Shown: positions 8,501 to 18,045, counted from the stretch's first letter. The stretch: DNA of 29,204 nucleotides from Nitrospirota bacterium (GCA_021819985.1 JAKAEG010000001.1:1-29204), one strand, 5' to 3'. A program made the numbers and translations. Notes: generated by a model not told the origin, from the sequence alone.

Positions 8501-8549
8501 ATAAGTAATCGCTAATATACTTATACATTATTTGATTGCAGATTGTCAA
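8501..8549 (-). promoter_or_regulatory. ArsR operon promoter TTGACA-N18-TATAAG with operator ATAAGTA-N10-TACTTAT (8501-8524)
   Basis: Perfect 7-bp inverted repeat overlapping the -10 and predicted start site, as expected for ArsR autorepression. Confidence 0.65.
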
Positions 8550-8581
8550 ATGAATTTATACGAAATGAATTTATACGAAAT
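8548..8581. repeat. Tandem 15-bp duplication AAATGAATTTATACG x2 (+AAAT)
   Basis: Exact copies at 8548-8562 and 8563-8577. Confidence 0.9.
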
Positions 8582-8628: not shown

Positions 8629-8874
8629 CTAGAGTCCTTCGAATATCTTCGACAATGATACACCCAAGGCCTTAGCCAGTTTTCTGAGAGAAGTAATCGT
8701 TGGATTTCTCTCGCCTCTTTCTATGCCCCCAATATAATTTCTGTGCAGGCCGGACTGTTCGGCTAACTCTTCTTGCGAGAGGCCAGTCGCCATTCTTAAG
8801 CCTCTAAGCTGCTTTCCCAGCCTTCTTAAGAAGGTATCCATAAGTGGATTATTTTGTGGCTGGGCTGAATTCAT
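8629..8874 (-). CDS. XRE-family HTH regulator, R-M controller (C) protein-like
   Basis: [40 protein letters not shown], close to the C.AhdI/C.Esp1396I pattern; start could be 8841. Confidence 0.9.
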
Positions 8875-8955: not shown

Positions 8956-9375
8956 ATTTTCCAGACGGGGGAACACCGGAAAAATATCCTGCTTGTGGAT
9001 GACAAAAAGGACGTCCTGCAACCTCTGGCGGAAGGGCTGAGGGTTTCCGGAGAATTCGACGTATTCACGGCCGAAAACGGCAGGAAGGCGCTGGAGATAT
9101 TCAAGTCCGGCCGCAAAGTGGATGTTCTTGTTACCGATATAGAAATGCCAGTGATGGACGGGTTCGAGCTTCTGGCTCAAGTAAAAAAGGATTACCCTGA
9201 TACACCAGCCATTGTGCTTACCGGCCACATAACCCACAAAATTAAAGAGCAGCTCAAGGCAATCGGGGACTTTGTCTGTATCCAGAAACCTGTCAGTTTC
9301 TGGGAACTCCGGCGGAAGATAATAGATGAACTTCGTATTCACTCCGCACGGGGAGAAAATAAAAAAACGAAATAG
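8956..9375 (+). CDS. Stand-alone receiver (REC) protein, paralogue of 1036..1467; probable ATT start
   Basis: HRKNILLVDD is encoded in frame upstream of the first GTG (8995); SD AAGGAGG 8941-8947 lies 8 nt before in-frame ATT 8956; VTDIEMP, VLTG, IQKP intact. Confidence 0.8.
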   Translation: MFQTGEHRKNILLVDDKKDVLQPLAEGLRVSGEFDVFTAENGRKALEIFKSGRKVDVLVTDIEMPVMDGFELLAQVKKDYPDTPAIVLTGHITHKIKEQLKAIGDFVCIQKPVSFWELRRKIIDELRIHSARGENKKTK

Positions 9376-9382
9376 CCCAAAT

Positions 9383-9775
9383 ATGGGGAAATTGAAAATG
9401 CTCAAAAGCGAGAAGGCTACGGGTGAGCTTATCAGGCAGATGAGAAAATCTTCCGGCATGTCGCAAATGCAGCTTGCGGAGAAGGTCGGGATTTCATATC
9501 AGCAGGTCCAGAAATACGAGAAAGGGGTAAACAGGCTCACCGTTCCAAGGATGAAGCAGATATCATGGGCGCTGGGAGTGCCCGCAAGTCTTTTCCTCGA
9601 TGAAGGAAACCTGCTTATGCCCGGGCAGCAAAAAGAAACGGGGCGGAATTGCCTTTTGGACGACGAGGCTAGGCTGCTCATGCTGTTCAGAAGAATCCGC
9701 AGCAGAAAGCTAAAACATGGCTTCATAGAGATGCTTGAGGATGTTGTAAATATATCGAATGGCAAGAAAAACTGA
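9383..9775 (+). CDS. XRE-family HTH regulator
   Basis: GMSQMQLAEKVGISYQQVQKYEKGVNRL; start 9383 or 9398. Confidence 0.88.
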   Translation: MGKLKMLKSEKATGELIRQMRKSSGMSQMQLAEKVGISYQQVQKYEKGVNRLTVPRMKQISWALGVPASLFLDEGNLLMPGQQKETGRNCLLDDEARLLMLFRRIRSRKLKHGFIEMLEDVVNISNGKKN

Positions 9776-9776
9776 A

Positions 9777-10097
9777 ATGCCGATTACTCGCGCCAGATCC
9801 ATTCTTTCGATTGTCTTGATTCTATTTATCCTGGGCGTGGCGGTGGTGGCGGGAGCGGCCAATTCTTTACAGAAAAGTCCCGAGTATCAGACCGCGGGGG
9901 CCCATAACCAATCCGAGGACGCCATGTTATCTGATATAAAACACCGTTGCGCTGCTGACCTCGGCCCGGGCTACTCCTTGCAGGTGCAAAAGACGTATAA
10001 TGGCGGCTATCTGTTCATTTGCGCCCAAAAGGATGATAACGCAAAAGGAATGCTGTATCCACGGCTTGTTCCGTCAGAAGCGCAAAAGCCCTTTTGA
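9777..10097 (+). CDS. Small exported hypothetical protein
   Basis: Basic N-terminus plus hydrophobic SILSIVLILFILGVAVVAGAA signal/TM; two Cys; ATG 1 nt after the XRE stop. Confidence 0.6.
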   Translation: MPITRARSILSIVLILFILGVAVVAGAANSLQKSPEYQTAGAHNQSEDAMLSDIKHRCAADLGPGYSLQVQKTYNGGYLFICAQKDDNAKGMLYPRLVPSEAQKPF

Positions 10098-10111: not shown

Positions 10112-11497
10112 TTATTTCTGTATCTTCGGTCGCACCTCCTCGATCTCCCTTATCCTCCCTTTCTTCATCTCCTCAAAATATGACACGGTTTCCCCGAAGG
10201 CCTCGGCGTTGAAGGGCGTGTAGAAAGAGGAGAGTTCCTTGCCGTCCTCCATCTGGACGATGAATGGTCCGCCGAAATAGCCGTCCTTTATGAGCCCGCG
10301 CGAGATGGCGTCCTTCTCTCGTCGAAGGTTGCAGACGATTGAGTAGAGGATATTTCTCTTAAGCTCCCGGTCCGAGTCCATGAGGGCGACATCAGGATTA
10401 CCCTTGCCGAGCTTCTTGGCCGCCTCTTCGAGCACCCCGGCCTGAAAGTACACATGTCCGTCCGGCATCGAGAAGGCGCTCCACCGCTGGCCGTCCAGGC
10501 GGTTGATATAAGGTTTCAGCTCCGCCAGGAACTTTTCGGCATCGAACCAGGGAAGAGGGACTTCCTTCAGCTTGACCTTCTCTTTTTCTTTCTTGGCATG
10601 GGTGATAAAGATACTGTCTTTTTCGGTCGGGCCCGCTTCCGCTTTCGGGGCCGACTGAAGAGGCTCCTCCGGTCTGCCAGGCTCCGGACCGGACCCGCCC
10701 TCAGTAGGGCGCTCCTGGATGTTACTGGCAATCTCCGTTCGCCTGGCATCCTGGTCCGCTTCCTTGAGCTTTTCTCCAAGCAGCCCCTTTGGGTACCTGT
10801 GGTGGTCGACAATGGCTTTATTGACATCGTCCTTATAGGGAAGCCCTGCGTAGCCCGGGAGGCCCTCCAGAATCGTTACGCTTATGAGTGGGTGGTCTCC
10901 CAGGGAGTAAAGGGTTTTTCTAAAAGAGGGGAGTTTGCCCAAGTCATGCCCCAGGGCGGCAATCAGAACCTTGGGAAGCATCGCGACGGATCCCTTGAAG
11001 GCTTTTATCATCTCTTCCGCCACGTCCAGGGTATGCCGGTAGAGTTTTACCCCGGCCAGGACGTCATAGGCGTTTTTGTCTGTGAAGCCTTCGGCTTCGC
11101 CCTTACCATTCACAACGGATGGGCAATCCCCCTCCCGATCGAGAAGTTGAAGAATTTCCCTGACCACGGTGCCGGCGGGAGTGGCGGAAAAGGTCCGCTC
11201 TTTTACGTACTCATCATAAAAATCCCGTATCTCCGGATGATCGAAGGCGAGGTCTTCGGCCTCCGCGGGCGGTGGCTGCCCGGCCTGGTTCCTCCAGAGG
11301 CCGGCAAGTTGCTCCAGGGATATCTCGGCGTTTCTGTGCCGGGACCAGATGGTGGACAGGGTCTCCAGGGCGATTTCCTTCTTGCCGCCCTTTTTCCGGG
11401 AGGGAAGGCCCTGTCCGGGCCCGGCGGACGGGCAAAGCGTCTTCCAGAGCCCGAAAGCGGCCGCCGCGATCCCAACGATCAGGGCCAGCTCAAACAT
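10112..11497 (-). CDS. HD-domain protein with N-terminal TM, possible MOBH/TraI_2-like relaxase
   Basis: H...HD...H...HH...D set (RHTLDV, LGHDLGK, DHP, DHH, EADQ); N-terminal MFELALIVGIAAAAFGLW; ATG 11497 overlaps the T4CP stop. Confidence 0.7.
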   Translation of the reverse strand: MFELALIVGIAAAAFGLWKTLCPSAGPGQGLPSRKKGGKKEIALETLSTIWSRHRNAEISLEQLAGLWRNQAGQPPPAEAEDLAFDHPEIRDFYDEYVKERTFSATPAGTVVREILQLLDREGDCPSVVNGKGEAEGFTDKNAYDVLAGVKLYRHTLDVAEEMIKAFKGSVAMLPKVLIAALGHDLGKLPSFRKTLYSLGDHPLISVTILEGLPGYAGLPYKDDVNKAIVDHHRYPKGLLGEKLKEADQDARRTEIASNIQERPTEGGSGPEPGRPEEPLQSAPKAEAGPTEKDSIFITHAKKEKEKVKLKEVPLPWFDAEKFLAELKPYINRLDGQRWSAFSMPDGHVYFQAGVLEEAAKKLGKGNPDVALMDSDRELKRNILYSIVCNLRREKDAISRGLIKDGYFGGPFIVQMEDGKELSSFYTPFNAEAFGETVSYFEEMKKGRIREIEEVRPKIQK

Positions 11498-12869
11498 CGG
11501 GCCGCCTGTCCCTCTGTGGACCGTCAATTTCCGCCATTCCCTCCACCGCGCTTATACTGGGAAGCTTGATGTGAACATATGGGTTCGAGACGTCCTCGGT
11601 CTTTCCTACGTAAGCGCCAGAGTAGCCCATCATGTAGAATTTTCTCGCGGGGAGATTAAGCACGTCCTGCGGCTTTAGCACCGGCTCTTCCATCTGCCTC
11701 ACTGTCATGCCGCCGCCCACACTCAGTATCGGCGCATATTTCGCCTTTTCCCCGAAATGGTCCGCTACGTATTGGGCCGTCTTCGCATCAGGGACCCTCA
11801 TGAAGAGCTTTGTATTGGTGTTGTCCAGTATCACGTTTGCGTAGTCCTCGCCCAGGGCCGCGTAAAGCTGGCTTACGGACTGGGAAAAACCGTGCACCCA
11901 CACGCCTGCCCCGCCGGCCTTGGCGAAGAGGTCGTCTATGCCGTAGTAAAGGACGTTCTGGGCCTCGTCTATGTAGAGACAAAGGGGCGGCGTGACCTTT
12001 CTGCCGGAGGCGAACACCCGCCCCACAAAGCTCTGTATCATCGAGATCACCACCTTCCCCAGGGTGTAAGCGGCCCTCCTGGTGATGAGAGAGGCAAGCT
12101 GGACGATCATAATCACCCGTTTGCCCTCTTCCAGCCGCTTTAAAAACCTGTTTTCATCGGCGCGGCCTATGATCTTCCCGATGTTGCCGGAGGTAAGCTC
12201 CATGAGGGCCACGCGCAGCGAGGAGGACACCTTACCGTAGTAATCCTGCGGGGAGTCGAGGATTTTCTGCATGTCGGAGGAAAGCTGTCTGGCCTCATCG
12301 GAGTCTATCGAGTCGATCTCGGCCTTGAGGTTTTCCAAGTCGGTATGGGAAATCCGGTTTTTTACGTCATTCAGGTTGAAGAGGGGCGGTTTCCCCTCGT
12401 TCTTGGCCAGAAGGATGAGACCCTGGACCACGACAAGACTTACCTCGTAAGCGACATTGTAGAAAAATTTCTCCTTGCCTACTTCGACGCCAGAGACTAT
12501 GTGCCCCACCAGCTCCTCGGGCATGAAATAATAGGCCAGCGGGTCTATGATGGCGCTGTAGGCCGGAAATACCGGCGTGACGAGCATAAGCTCCTCCTGT
12601 CGGCCCTCCTCGAAGGCCGCCTGGACTATCTTGGAGAAAATCTCAGCGTCTCCCTTGGGATCTATGAGGACCACGCTGTGGCCCTTTCTTATGTCCTGCT
12701 CGGCCATGTTCTCTATGACTCGGGTCTTGCCCACGCGGGTGGTCCCGAAGCACCAGAGGTGGCCGTTACGATGCGCGTCCGGGATGGCTATCCGGATATT
12801 GCGGGTGGGATCGGCGAGTTTCTGGCCCCGGCCGAGTATGAGCTGGCTCTCCTTATCTCCCCCGGACAA
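11490..12869 (-). CDS. traD: Type IV coupling protein (TraD/VirD4-like ATPase) without N-terminal TM
   Basis: HLWCFGTTRVGKT (Walker A), VLIDPKGD, LYIDEA (Walker B), FSQSVSQL, NTNTKLFMRV. Confidence 0.82.
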   Translation of the reverse strand: MSGGDKESQLILGRGQKLADPTRNIRIAIPDAHRNGHLWCFGTTRVGKTRVIENMAEQDIRKGHSVVLIDPKGDAEIFSKIVQAAFEEGRQEELMLVTPVFPAYSAIIDPLAYYFMPEELVGHIVSGVEVGKEKFFYNVAYEVSLVVVQGLILLAKNEGKPPLFNLNDVKNRISHTDLENLKAEIDSIDSDEARQLSSDMQKILDSPQDYYGKVSSSLRVALMELTSGNIGKIIGRADENRFLKRLEEGKRVIMIVQLASLITRRAAYTLGKVVISMIQSFVGRVFASGRKVTPPLCLYIDEAQNVLYYGIDDLFAKAGGAGVWVHGFSQSVSQLYAALGEDYANVILDNTNTKLFMRVPDAKTAQYVADHFGEKAKYAPILSVGGGMTVRQMEEPVLKPQDVLNLPARKFYMMGYSGAYVGKTEDVSNPYVHIKLPSISAVEGMAEIDGPQRDRRPDV

Positions 12870-13596
12870 AATGGACGATGATCCTTTCCTTAAGCTCCCC
12901 CGAGACCGCTTTTATGCACTCCCCGGGGACCCTGCCCTCCGCCTCGACCAGGCTGAAAACCCCTGCGGCCCTTTTCACGCACCTGACCCTTATGGCCAGG
13001 AGCCTGTCCGAAAGCTCCCTCTGGAAAAGACCCTCCGTGAGGCTCCGCGATGTCCTGCTCAAGGAGACTTTCAAGACCGGGACGCGGCCGTTTGATGATG
13101 GCGTTACACTCGATACGTAGAAGTTAAGATAGTCCCCGGTCCGGTAAAGGCCCCTTTCCTTGGGCGTCTGATGCTCTTTTTCGCATACCCCGACCACAAG
13201 CCAACCGGCGCTGCCGTCCAGCTCGACGAATATGCGCTCCTCGAATACCGCGGCGACATGCCCGCCGATGATCCCGCCTGTGAGGTAGCGGAGTTTTCCG
13301 TAGCCCCGGACCGTGGCCTCCCTTTGAAGGGCGGAGACGATATCGTATTTGATCGCCCGAAGGACGTTCTTTTTAAGGCGCTCCATGGGGAGCAGTTCAA
13401 CCCTGTTTTCCCTGAAGACGTAGATTTCGCATCCCTCTCTGGTCAGCATGCACTCCACATCCAGGCGGAAGATGCCCGACAGAGTGCCGGATATGGACCT
13501 CTCGATGGCCGCTTTCGCCTCGTCGCAGGGAAGCTCGTACTTATCGGCGACGGCCCGGAGGTCAGCGCCGCCTGAAATATCTTTTAAAAACCGCAT
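12853..13596 (-). CDS. Truncated NusA-like protein (NTD, S1, partial KH1)
   Basis: Motifs align by eye with NusA: AVADKYELP, GGIIGGHVAAV, RTGD, LSRT...LFQRE, KRAAG, IKAVSGELKERI; SD AAGGAGG before ATG 13596. Confidence 0.75.
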   Translation of the reverse strand: MRFLKDISGGADLRAVADKYELPCDEAKAAIERSISGTLSGIFRLDVECMLTREGCEIYVFRENRVELLPMERLKKNVLRAIKYDIVSALQREATVRGYGKLRYLTGGIIGGHVAAVFEERIFVELDGSAGWLVVGVCEKEHQTPKERGLYRTGDYLNFYVSSVTPSSNGRVPVLKVSLSRTSRSLTEGLFQRELSDRLLAIRVRCVKRAAGVFSLVEAEGRVPGECIKAVSGELKERIIVHFVRGR

Positions 13597-13990
13597 AGAC
13601 CCTCCTTGCGTACCGCGCTCTTTTTTCGTTGTCCGAGGCGTTGTAGCAGCCCACAGCCTCCCATGTATAGCCGTACCTCCGGACGCACCGGGCCAGTATC
13701 CAGGCGCCTGCTTTGACATTAGTGCAGGGATTCCCAAGAGACCGCCAGACGCCCATGCCAAGCGTCGGGGCCCAGGCTGAGTTGATCTGCATGAGACCGT
13801 AATCGTATGTGCCGTTTTGGTTCCAGTTGACCGCCTGGGGGGTGAAATCAGACTCGACCTTTGCGATCGACCAAAGGAGCCGGGGAGATACGCCGTACTT
13901 CGCCCCCGCGGCCTCGAAGCAGAAGGCGTAGGCCGGGGCGGCGGATGAAAGAATGAGGATCAAGGCAATAAGGGCCCTTTTTATATCCAT
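13562..13990 (-). CDS. Lytic transglycosylase (SLT; VirB1/TrbN/IagB-like) with signal peptide
   Basis: IAKVES (catalytic Glu), GLMQIN, NVKAGAWIL, AVGCYNA; signal ending AYA-F. Confidence 0.92.
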   Translation of the reverse strand: MDIKRALIALILILSSAAPAYAFCFEAAGAKYGVSPRLLWSIAKVESDFTPQAVNWNQNGTYDYGLMQINSAWAPTLGMGVWRSLGNPCTNVKAGAWILARCVRRYGYTWEAVGCYNASDNEKRARYARRVYAVFKRYFRRR

Positions 13991-14199
13991 CTATAGTGAT
14001 ATAGGCAGGGGGCAACTTTAAGCGGGCGCGTTCAGTTCAAGACGCAAGGTTTTCACCGAGAAAAGATGCTTTTGATGGCCGGGTCGGGGTTCGGAGTCCC
14101 TTCAACTTCGCAGGGTACTTACTCTGCTTCTGATGCTAAGATTTGCCCTGAAATCTGTTGTGAGTCTATTCTTTGCAAAATGCAGTGTACGACTAGAAA

Positions 14200-14371: not shown

Positions 14372-14441
14372 ATCCATCCTTTCGGGAAGAGTATTATTTT
14401 CACATTGAGCCGCAAAGAAAAGGAATAGTCAATTCGCTCAG

Positions 14442-14470
14442 TTGACATTTAAGTCTGCATGTGATTTAAT
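14442..14470 (+). promoter_or_regulatory. Sigma70 promoter TTGACA-N17-TTTAAT (TG extension)
   Basis: Consensus -35, correct spacing, directly before the riboswitch. Confidence 0.75.
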
Positions 14471-14484
14471 CAGAATCGAGTTTA

Positions 14485-14680
14485 GGTTTACAGGTGCCCT
14501 AAAGGGCATTAAAGGGAATCCCGTGGAAATCGGGAGCGGTCCCGCCGCTGTAACCGGGGACAAACCTTCAGTAAAGCCACTGTGCCTTATAAAAGGCATG
14601 GGAAGGCGAAGGTGAGGATGAACCGGGAGCCAGAAGACCTGCCTGTGAGCAATTAGAGAAGGAACTTCTCGCGGAAGAAG
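14485..14680 (+). promoter_or_regulatory. Cobalamin riboswitch 1
   Basis: CAGGTGC, AAAGGGAA, GTGGAAATC, CCCGCCGCTGT, GCCACTG 14576, GGGAAGG 14600, GAGCCAGAAGACCTGCC 14627; P13 CTTCT-CGCGGA-AGAAG 14665-14680. Confidence 0.95.
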
Positions 14681-14731
14681 GAAGGACGGGGATGGTAAAC
14701 CCGTCCGCAAGGGATGAAGCAAACTGGGTGC

Positions 14732-14773
14732 AATCCCGATGGCTGTCACCGGCCATCGGGATTTTTGTTTTTT
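14732..14773 (+). terminator. Intrinsic terminator of riboswitch 1 expression platform
   Basis: Perfect 12-bp stem AATCCCGATGGC/GCCATCGGGATT followed by a T tract. Confidence 0.88.
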
Positions 14774-14795
14774 AAGCCAAAAAAAGGAGGGATTT

Positions 14796-15494
14796 ATGCA
14801 TATCGAAGACGGGATTCTGCCGCCCAAGGCTTGGGGGTTCTGGTACGCAGTAGCAATGCTTTTCATTATTCCAGGTGTAAGAGAAATTAAAAGACGCGTT
14901 CGTGAGAACCTGTCTTACAAGCCGTTTCTTGCCATGGTGGGGGTTGCCGTCTTTGTAATCTCGGCCATGCATTTGCCGGTACCCGTGACCGGCTCCTGTT
15001 CGCACCCCTGCGGCACGCCTCTTGCGGCAATAGTGATTGGCCCGTTTGCAACGGCCGTAGTATCGGCCATAGTGCTTTTTTTTCAGGCCATTTTTCTTGG
15101 GCACGGAGGTATCACCACCATCGGGGCCAACGATTTTTCCATGGGCATAGTCGGGGGAATATCCGGCTATCTCTGCTGGAAATTCCTCAGGCGCTTCAAT
15201 TCCCCCTTATGGCTGGCCGGCGGCGTAGCTGGTTTTGTTGGCGACGTGATGACGTACCTTACATCCGCTTTCGAGCTGGCCTGGAGCCTGCATGGCCATA
15301 TCCCGCTTCTCAAACAATGGATGATCTTTTTTGCGGGGTATGGGCCGACGCAGTTGCCGCTGGCCGTTGCCGAGGCCGTTTTCACCGCCGCCGTGTTGCA
15401 AGTGATGTACAACCGCAGGCCGGATCTGCTGCCGGGCGTGACGGGCAGGAAAAAGACATTTAGTGAAATCGGAAAGGCTGAGGCGAAAGGATAG
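14796..15494 (+). CDS. cbiM: Cobalt ECF transporter S component CbiM
   Basis: N-terminal MHIEDG, GSCSHPCG, FQAIFLGHGGITTIGAN; SD AAAGGAGG; under a B12 riboswitch. Confidence 0.92.
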   Translation: MHIEDGILPPKAWGFWYAVAMLFIIPGVREIKRRVRENLSYKPFLAMVGVAVFVISAMHLPVPVTGSCSHPCGTPLAAIVIGPFATAVVSAIVLFFQAIFLGHGGITTIGANDFSMGIVGGISGYLCWKFLRRFNSPLWLAGGVAGFVGDVMTYLTSAFELAWSLHGHIPLLKQWMIFFAGYGPTQLPLAVAEAVFTAAVLQVMYNRRPDLLPGVTGRKKTFSEIGKAEAKG

Positions 15495-17817: not shown

Positions 17818-17847
17818 TATCTAAATTAAGCCTGCCGTGGATTTTCC

Positions 17848-18045
17848 TTGCGCAGGCGCAGATGGATGTGGAAGAGGGGTGAAAATCCCCCGCTGCCCCG
17901 CAGCCGTGATGGGAACGAAAGCCCGATACGCCACTGTCAAGCGTAAGACCTTGATGGGAAGGCGGGCAAGTAGATGGGCGTTCATTGGGTGCCCTTGCCC
18001 TCAGCCGGAAGACCTGTCTGTCTGAAAAAATACCTCGCGGGAGGG
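17848..18045 (+). promoter_or_regulatory. Cobalamin riboswitch 2 (translational type)
   Basis: GGGGTGAAAATCCCC, GCTGCCCCGCAGC, GCCACTG 17930, GGGAAGG 17956, CAGCCGGAAGACCTG 18002; P13 CCTC-GCGG-GAGG contains the btuB SD. Confidence 0.93.

Follow-up and report, generated by a model that had tools for sequence, protein, structure and literature searches.

The 29,204-nt contig JAKAEG010000001.1 of a Nitrospirota bacterium (GCA_021819985.1) is referred to here in its entirety as the window; it is contig C122 of a 94%-complete, 379-contig metagenome-assembled genome (MAG; G000) from mine drainage. On its minus strand lies a quartet of overlapping genes, for a specialised lytic transglycosylase (SLT), a NusA-like protein, a type IV coupling protein (T4CP) and an HD-domain protein. 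We regard the quartet as probably the DNA transfer and replication (Dtr)/T4CP module of a family of F-type (mating pair formation class MPF_F) conjugative elements, orphaned at this site and likely to work in trans. Rather than a new type of system, it is a so far undescribed variation on the MOBH-TraD theme. Its unusual traits are a T4CP with no membrane anchor, a transmembrane (TM)-anchored HD enzyme lacking the 3H motif, and a NusA paralogue. In its relatives the module resides in elements with a complete F-type type IV secretion system (T4SS), which are integrative conjugative elements (ICEs) and plasmids of Nitrospirota, Thermodesulfobacteriota and Campylobacterota.

The genes follow one another in the order SLT (13990..13562, 142 aa, exported), NusA-like (13596..12853, 247 aa, ATG start), T4CP (12869..11490, 459 aa, counted from the TTG that is the first start of the maximal open reading frame (ORF)) and HD protein (11497..10112, 461 aa, the candidate MOBH-like nickase). 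Much of this layout had been read correctly from the sequence in the original prediction. Re-derived from the ORFs, the overlaps are 35 nt (SLT/NusA-like), 17 nt (NusA-like/T4CP) and 8 nt (T4CP/HD), and all four reading frames are open and intact. The Shine-Dalgarno sequence of the NusA-like gene, AAGGAGG, lies 5 nt ahead of its ATG and within the end of the SLT gene, and the SLT gene itself has no purine-rich Shine-Dalgarno sequence, its ATG being preceded only by ...CCTATATCACTATAG. The composition of the quartet is foreign to its surroundings: GC content is 0.577 against 0.485 in the remaining window, and GC3 of its genes is 0.71-0.75 against 0.55-0.63 in their neighbours.

The HD protein has several hundred protein matches as relatives, from Nitrospirota, Thermodesulfobacteriota and elsewhere. 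In species-representative genomes a scan confirmed 161 HD loci; 80 of them were fetched, and 59 had sufficient upstream DNA. The order NusA-like, T4CP, HD was present in 58 of these 59, the median distance being -1 nt at each junction. Among loci with ample upstream DNA, L033 (21 kb, from an uncultured delta proteobacterium) alone has the HD gene and the 241-aa and 132-aa partners but no detectable T4CP or NusA-like gene. An SLT gene precedes the trio solely in a Nitrospirota/Syntrophaceae clade. The Desulfobulbales loci continue after the trio with genes for a polytopic membrane protein of roughly 240 aa and a protein of roughly 130 aa; homologues of these partners, of 231 and 128 aa, accompany an 80-aa membrane protein a few kb downstream in two Nitrospirota loci, that of a related Nitrospiraceae MAG (L003) and a paralogous one on contig C43 of our MAG. 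The 241/231-aa and 132/128-aa partners had no Pfam match, and Pfam showed no link between them and TraJ/DUF4400.

The clearest complete setting is in Thermodesulfovibrio sp. TK110, where a single operon in one direction reads NusA-like-T4CP-HD-HD_5-OmpA-pilin-TraL-TraE-TraK-TraB-DsbC-TraV-TraC-...-TraU-TrbC-TraN-TraF-TraH-TraG, with the NusA-like gene first, behind a helix-turn-helix (HTH)/ImmA-like pair. A divergent operon there encodes a primase-helicase, topoisomerase IA, HU, SSB, SLT, YdjM, a ParM-like protein and a 242/128-aa pair that resembles the partner pair by size and order. Among 301 genomes sampled from the phylum, 11 have the HD family, and 10 of these also have F-type TraC; of the 290 others, 8 have TraC. 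HD and TraC genes lie 19-37 kb apart on one contig in seven Nitrospirota genomes; among five large Desulfobulbales genomes the distance is 40-95 kb where the two could be placed on one contig. On the 290-kb plasmid pIAE1 of Trichlorobacter lovleyi the order is SSB-SLT-NusA-like-T4CP-HD followed by genes for 83, 238 and 160 aa, and a modified module occurs on the F-type plasmid pCIG1485E of Campylobacter iguaniorum. The latter (L097, 11301-15649) consists of a small HD phosphohydrolase gene, the T4CP gene and then an 800-aa HD-family homologue annotated as a diguanylate cyclase, with an SLT gene downstream. The original prediction had set itself against the case that all related quartets would prove to belong to complete, known ICEs with these genes already described. 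The relatives do sit in conjugative elements, but their NusA-like and HD genes are undescribed there, being annotated as hypothetical or 'HD domain-containing'.

Two of the four products are readily placed. The SLT matches PF01464 (2e-22, 79 bits); its N-terminus is hydrophobic (KD19 2.17), with a signal peptide that ends in AYA, and the catalytic Glu-Ser motif is present as 'KVESDF', both read from the sequence. Among NCBIfam models it scores best with IagB (1.5e-33), followed by TrbN and VirB1 (about 1e-6), all below the equivalog cutoffs; it is of the IagB/VirB1-like secretion-system type, its exact subfamily not being fixed by such scores. The T4CP matches TraG-D_C (4e-16), TrwB_AAD_bind (1e-12) and TIGR03743 SXT_TraD (1.7e-48) and has the Walker A motif GTTRVGKT and the Walker B motif LYIDE. 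The best-scoring stretch of the TraD match begins only at position 165 of the 636 in the TIGR03743 profile, and the T4CP therefore has no N-terminal membrane domain. No TM segment was found in it, the N-terminus of the maximal 459-aa ORF included, and the domain is likewise absent across 65 T4CP homologues of 434-500 aa. By its sequence, the protein is an anchor-less TraD of the SXT/PFGI type, comprising the ATPase domain only.

The HD protein matches PF01966 with 26 bits. Its model divides into a TM helix (residues 2-21), an HD domain (about 85-262), a disordered stretch (264-304) and a conserved alpha/beta domain (317-461); the linker is disordered in the model and variable in the family alignment. 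That alignment has H155, H184-D185-L-G-K188, Y197, H202, H232-H233 and D248 invariant in the HD part (the metal motif in 43 sequences), and W317, N332, R338, S343, G347, Y350, Q352, L402-I403, P428, E432 and others conserved in the C-terminal domain. The metal motif (H...HDxxK...D) aligns with that of MOBH relaxases, H155, H184-D185-L-G-K188 and D248 corresponding to MOBH H107, H151-D152-x-G-K155 and D254. Profile-profile comparisons of the HD family with TraI_2/MobH gave probabilities of 21-65% and E-values of 1e-3 to 6e-5. The best alignment (65%, 6e-5) is colinear over 308 columns, pairs the metal ligands, and was made with a TraI_2 profile of 19 domains, drawn from 17 MobH/TraI_2-annotated proteins and two divergent TraI_2-like Nitrospirota ORFs. 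hhalign sets the C-terminal domain against the latter half of TraI_2 rather than against TraI_2_C, 'G.RW...DG.VYFQ...ARGLI' of the HD protein pairing with 'GRW..N.PGARLW..DGLHVVWP...ERGLA' of TraI_2. When the single HD sequence was aligned by hhalign with the two Nitrospirota TraI_2-like ORFs, the HD motif alone was aligned, and this comparison was set aside.

Structural searches with the HD protein were of mixed yield. Foldseek with the whole model against PDB and AFDB returned generic HD folds and its own family only, and an Atlas feature search with the C-terminal domain returned no match. Among the nearest ESM Atlas shapes for residues 87-461, a MobH-relaxase cluster is the third distinct family, and 3KQ5 and the MobH cluster are among the nearest structures that span both domains. 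These links to MOBH are weak and only partly independent of one another; remote homology to MOBH TraI_2 is plausible. No canonical relaxase came up nearby: MOBH and MOBF models had no match near the HD-family elements in five Desulfobulbales genomes, and relaxase Pfam models had none in 46 kb of the Thermodesulfovibrio TK110 element. Short MOBH-like HD nucleases are reported to be the sole relaxase candidates on other plasmids that lack a canonical relaxase (PMC12934698, a 2026 preprint). We consider the HD protein the best relaxase candidate of its elements and judge it somewhat likely to be their nickase. A Nitrospirota genome without the HD family (G275) holds a 370-aa TraI_2-like ORF (L098, G275:C5:46045-46806, 1.2e-17) 8 kb from an F-type TraC gene (G275:C5:54386), and this ORF may be the conventional counterpart of the HD protein. 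We also tried the MOB-suite label 'non-mobilizable' as a sign of a missing relaxase, and dropped it. Two plasmids with MobH/TraI beside traD (L110, NZ_AP025151.1; L111, NZ_CP020371.1) are so labelled in PLSDB/MOB-suite, and the label is therefore unreliable for MOBH-type elements.

The NusA-like protein is a true but shortened paralogue of NusA and not its orthologue. Against TIGR01953 it scores 39 bits (E 4.6e-10), the equivalog cutoff being 253.4. An AlphaFold model built on 56 sequences (pLDDT 93.9) matches NusA structures over its full length (Foldseek E 2.6e-15 to 1e-11, TM-score 0.59-0.69). Its fold spans the N-terminal domain (NTD), S1 and KH1, without KH2 or AR domains. The family profile matches PDB NusA of M. 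tuberculosis and Planctomyces at 1e-10 over residues 14-241, and host nusA genes of other genomes at about 1e-10. An exhaustive profile-free search collected 151 clusters of relatives, nearly all of about 240-280 aa with some shorter fragments, and there was no full-length NusA among them. Compared with bacterial NusA, the 247-aa protein retains the NTD, S1 and KH1 folds and the LSRTS linker motif, but it lacks KH2 and AR, and its gene heads a transfer operon instead of standing in rimP-nusA-infB.

The NTD is the RNA polymerase-binding part of NusA. Paralogues of another general elongation factor, NusG (RfaH, ActX, TaA, UpxY), are plasmid- and operon-specific and are found at the start of long horizontally acquired operons; theirs is a distinct protein family and the likeness is an analogy in gene position. 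Because the NusA-like protein keeps the RNA polymerase-binding NTD and its gene stands at the operon head, a role in elongation is favoured, and the protein may promote elongation or antitermination specifically in the long transfer operon. Equally compatible with its S1/KH domains and with the tight coupling to the T4CP gene is a role as a single-strand-binding accessory of the relaxosome. A predicted complex of T4CP and NusA-like protein scored 0.00, which counts neither for nor against binding. In a literature search we did not find a paper that ties a NusA paralogue to conjugation.

The nearest described systems are the DNA-processing clusters of the SXT/R391 ICEs and IncA/C plasmids (mobI-traI(MobH)-traD-traJ(DUF4400)) and traD-traI-ltgX of the gonococcal genetic island (GGI). 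In these, as here, an SXT/PFGI-type TraD adjoins an HD enzyme, there is a lytic transglycosylase, and an F-type T4SS goes with the module. The layout of the HD protein, with its N-terminal membrane element, disordered linker and globular C-terminal part, echoes that of GGI TraI. The T4CP of the quartet also belongs to the TraD clades that accompany MOBH. The quartet differs in its order (accessory-T4CP-HD, where the others have accessory-relaxase-T4CP), in having a NusA paralogue as the accessory gene in place of MobI, in the absence of a transmembrane domain from the T4CP, and in an HD protein of about 460 aa with no 3H motif, no recognisable TraI_2_C and no match to the TraI_2/MobH hidden Markov models. 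The 'Hodor' gut megaplasmids (PMC12934698) are conjugative replicons that likewise have no canonical relaxase, and a short HD nuclease, which only structure or HH-type searches can recognise, was proposed for that role. Compared by description only, they differ in using a separate helicase and a VirB-type system, where the present family has a NusA paralogue, an anchor-less TraD and an F-type system.

The copy in the window is an orphan, with host genes on both sides, a site shared with L003, and the partner genes and T4SS missing in cis. Its neighbours are the cobalamin-riboswitch/cbiMQO cluster to one side and regulatory genes to the other. L003 has its quartet at the same site, with genes for a TonB receptor, cbiO, cbiQ and cbiM on one side (81-90% aa identity) and HTH, receiver and XRE genes plus an inserted HicAB pair on the other. 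Past XRE the two diverge: PIN/AbiEi, the 80/231/128/174-aa genes and amidoligase-type cargo follow in L003, ArsR and host genes as far as uppS in the window. A perfect tandem duplication of AAATGAATTTATACG lies at 8548-8577, between ArsR and XRE, where the synteny with L003 stops. Synonymous divergence (dS) between window and L003 is about 0.40-0.45 in the quartet and 0.42-0.64 in the flanks, and this similarity fits co-inheritance of the quartet with its site. In a genome of the same genus the synteny around the site is not conserved and no empty-site comparison is possible. In four sequencing runs belonging to the same study, contigs bridge the junctions of the quartet with both flanks, and no excision joint was found in them. 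In runs X2-X4 the summed contig depth over part of the T4CP gene (11816-12718) is 2-4x that of its neighbours, as expected if the samples contain several strains or near-identical copies of the T4CP.

Other contigs of the MAG, all of them short, hold related genes. T4CP-HD copies occur on C43, which has the full L003-like layout with the 80/231/128-aa genes, and on C360. The 80/231/128-aa membrane partner genes are on C43 and C89 and not on C122; the 231-aa gene of C89 matches in two frames, suggesting a possible frameshift. C83 carries an F-type T4SS segment with TraE, TraK, TraB, TraV and TraC, and no VirB4-type gene was found in the MAG. The statement of the original prediction that a T4SS is lacking thus holds for the window only, where no integrase or oriT (the origin of transfer) was found either; its proposed check of the host genome for a T4SS turned up C83, with the reservation that the MAG is fragmented.

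All four genes are under purifying selection. Pairwise ratios of nonsynonymous to synonymous divergence (dN/dS) are 0.03-0.11 for the T4CP, which is 97% identical to its L003 orthologue, and 0.13-0.25 for SLT, NusA-like and HD, similar to the values for the cbi genes. Parsimony places 7 nonsynonymous and 51 synonymous substitutions on the window branch for T4CP, 18:25 for NusA-like, 34:36 for HD and 14:10 for SLT, where neutrality would give about 3:1, and the synonymous bias resembles that on the L003 branch. Neutral evolution of the quartet, named beforehand in the original prediction as evidence that would speak against it, is not what these ratios (0.03-0.25) indicate.

A mechanism can be proposed for the module. 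The TM-anchored HD protein would tether a soluble TraD-type ATPase to the membrane and, as a remote 3H-less relative of TraI_2, would most likely make a metal-dependent cut at oriT. The SLT would locally open the peptidoglycan, as VirB1 and LtgX do, and the NusA paralogue would serve either elongation and antitermination of the transfer operon or the relaxosome, as a single-strand-binding accessory. The window copy would have lost, or never had, the 80/231/128-aa partner genes and the T4SS. Since it has been kept intact, it probably works in trans, together with an F-type T4SS and sister modules that other parts of the genome encode. A bolder extension, which we put forward tentatively and think rather doubtful as a whole, is that the HD protein founds a compact 3H-less offshoot class of MOBH, nicks oriT and replaces the T4CP anchor; that through the NusA paralogue the ATPase is linked to transcription of the transfer operon or to handling of the displaced strand; and that orphan copies, maintained by selection at a fixed site in the chromosome beside genes for metal uptake, mobilise the adjacent chromosome in Hfr fashion through the resident F-type T4SS.

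Several results weigh against an orphan Dtr/T4CP module that works in trans. No integrase was found among the scanned ORFs of the window, and no att site or convincing flanking or direct repeat around the quartet. Folding of the 156-nt region upstream of SLT gave no oriT-like hairpin (z 0.83), and within the conserved part of this region, at about 14020-14040, the window copy lacks 13 nt that L003, L015 and L017 have. With the MAG in 379 contigs, C83, C43 and C360 could come from co-binned strains. A search for sequencing runs returned mine-drainage DNA runs alone and no RNA runs. For the HD protein, PF07514 TraI_2 and the NCBIfam MobH models give no match at E<=0.1. The 3H motif (SE.HHH), which is essential for cleavage in TraI of the GGI (PMC6736028), is missing; the aligned region of the HD protein reads LLDREGDCPSVVN..GE.EG and has no His triad. 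The earlier designation 'MOBH HD relaxase' was for these reasons overstated, and what survives of it is a plausible remote homology.

The alternative for this protein is that it is an accessory phosphohydrolase or nuclease, acting for instance in nucleotide signalling or on RNA or single-stranded DNA ends and tethering the T4CP, with the true relaxase encoded by another, unrecognised gene. The absent 3H motif would be expected in that case, and in structure the HD domain comes closest to generic HD hydrolases, YhaM and Cas3-HD. The full elements contain many unannotated ORFs as well as a primase-helicase and a topoisomerase, and the Campylobacter homologue is fused to a GGDEF-annotated protein and accompanied by a second small HD protein. 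Set against this are the colinear TraI_2 alignment, which takes in the subdomain after the HD domain, the presence of 3KQ5 and the MobH cluster among the nearest structures across both domains, the invariant position of the gene beside a MOBH-type TraD, and the proposal of short MOBH-like HD nucleases as sole candidates in other 'relaxase-less' plasmids (PMC12934698). We hold the accessory role to be possible and clearly the less probable of the two.

For the quartet as a whole, the original prediction had offered a retained ICE core, a minimal mobilisable element with its T4SS elsewhere, and a domesticated system. The first fits best of the three, in that homologues sit in F-type ICEs and plasmids and the copy here has host flanks and no channel. 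The second gains from the T4SS genes on C83 and from purifying selection, and loses from the absence of any integrase, att site or oriT in our searches; the third found no positive support. That the quartet is an inert remnant of a recent ICE deletion, functionless and with its decay still to come, seems unlikely to us. Such an event would explain why the T4SS, integrase and membrane partner genes are lacking in cis, why L003 carries ICE-like 80/231/128/174-aa genes and an amidoligase downstream where the window has ArsR and host genes, and the loss of 13 nt from the conserved SLT-upstream segment. All four frames nonetheless remain open, changes on the window branch are strongly skewed towards synonymous ones (most so in T4CP, 7 against 51) as on the L003 branch, and a dS to L003 of about 0.4-0.45 is considerable divergence; a very recent truncation would, for its part, let the selection signal predate it. 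Far less probable again is a domesticated or defence system, in which a soluble FtsK/TraD-like ATPase, an HD nuclease and an RNA-binding NusA-like protein would act, with no T4SS, for instance on invading DNA or in DNA export or turnover. Weak PADLOC matches (mad8 at 1e-12 for the ATPase, Cas3 HD at 7e-6 for the HD protein), toxin-antitoxin and Abi genes adjoining the module in L003 and L008, and a conserved chromosomal site under purifying selection could be read this way. But the genes of the family lie within transfer operons and tend to share a genome with F-type TraC, an exported SLT suits assembly of an envelope machine, toxin-antitoxin and Abi genes are typical ICE cargo, and no known defence family was reached at significant coverage. 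The PADLOC matches being weak and partial, and PHROGs useful for the transglycosylases alone, a defence or phage reading was rejected.

Many conjugative plasmids and ICEs outside Proteobacteria are typed as relaxase-less, which limits prediction of gene flow. Should the HD family prove to be the nickase, a wide range of F-type elements could be classified across sulfate reducers, Nitrospirota and Campylobacterota. Mobile operons are known to have captured NusG paralogues, and the strict association of a NusA paralogue with a coupling ATPase would be the equivalent for NusA; an anchor-less T4CP beside a TM-anchored enzyme offers a testable model in which substrate processing is joined physically to pumping. 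For the source genome, the island would be a stranded conjugation module.

On the 3' side of the quartet and convergent with it stand four co-conserved neighbours: an XRE gene (8629-8874, minus strand), a receiver (8995-9375, plus), an HTH_3 protein (9326-9775, plus) and a small exported protein (9759-10097, plus). The same neighbours follow T4CP-HD in the paralogous C43 copy, at 63-84% aa identity, and are 65-72% identical to their orthologues in L003, where the small exported protein had no match. With HTH_3 matches in the group, they are possibly a regulatory module of the element. The rest of the window holds uppS, genes for c-di-GMP signalling, ArsR, a CopD-like protein, cbiMQO, btuB/FecCD/TonB, nikR, OprB and a second cbiMNQO set. 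The scanned ORFs of the window include no T4SS gene and no integrase, and the window contains no tRNA.

On the other side, roughly 110 nt upstream of SLT (13991..14100, minus strand) are conserved among four loci whose upstream DNA is otherwise unrelated, and GTTGCCCCC..CTAT is invariant in a six-locus alignment. This leader or promoter-proximal segment is the sole non-coding candidate nearby for a regulatory or oriT function; no sigma-70 promoter match was found in the SLT-upstream region. In L003 it includes a promoter-like pair, TTGACC...GAATAT, the spacing of which is abolished by the 13-nt deletion in the window. Further upstream, the ORF at 14438-14866 (minus), which had been described as a decayed kinase, has no family match and lies antisense to a cobalamin riboswitch (14475-14660, plus, 121.6 bits), and we discarded that description. 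The riboswitch stands ahead of cbiM, which it controls, and a terminator-like hairpin with a 14-bp stem (14732-14763) looks like its expression platform. A second cobalamin riboswitch (17822-18035, plus, 69.3 bits) precedes the btuB-like operon.

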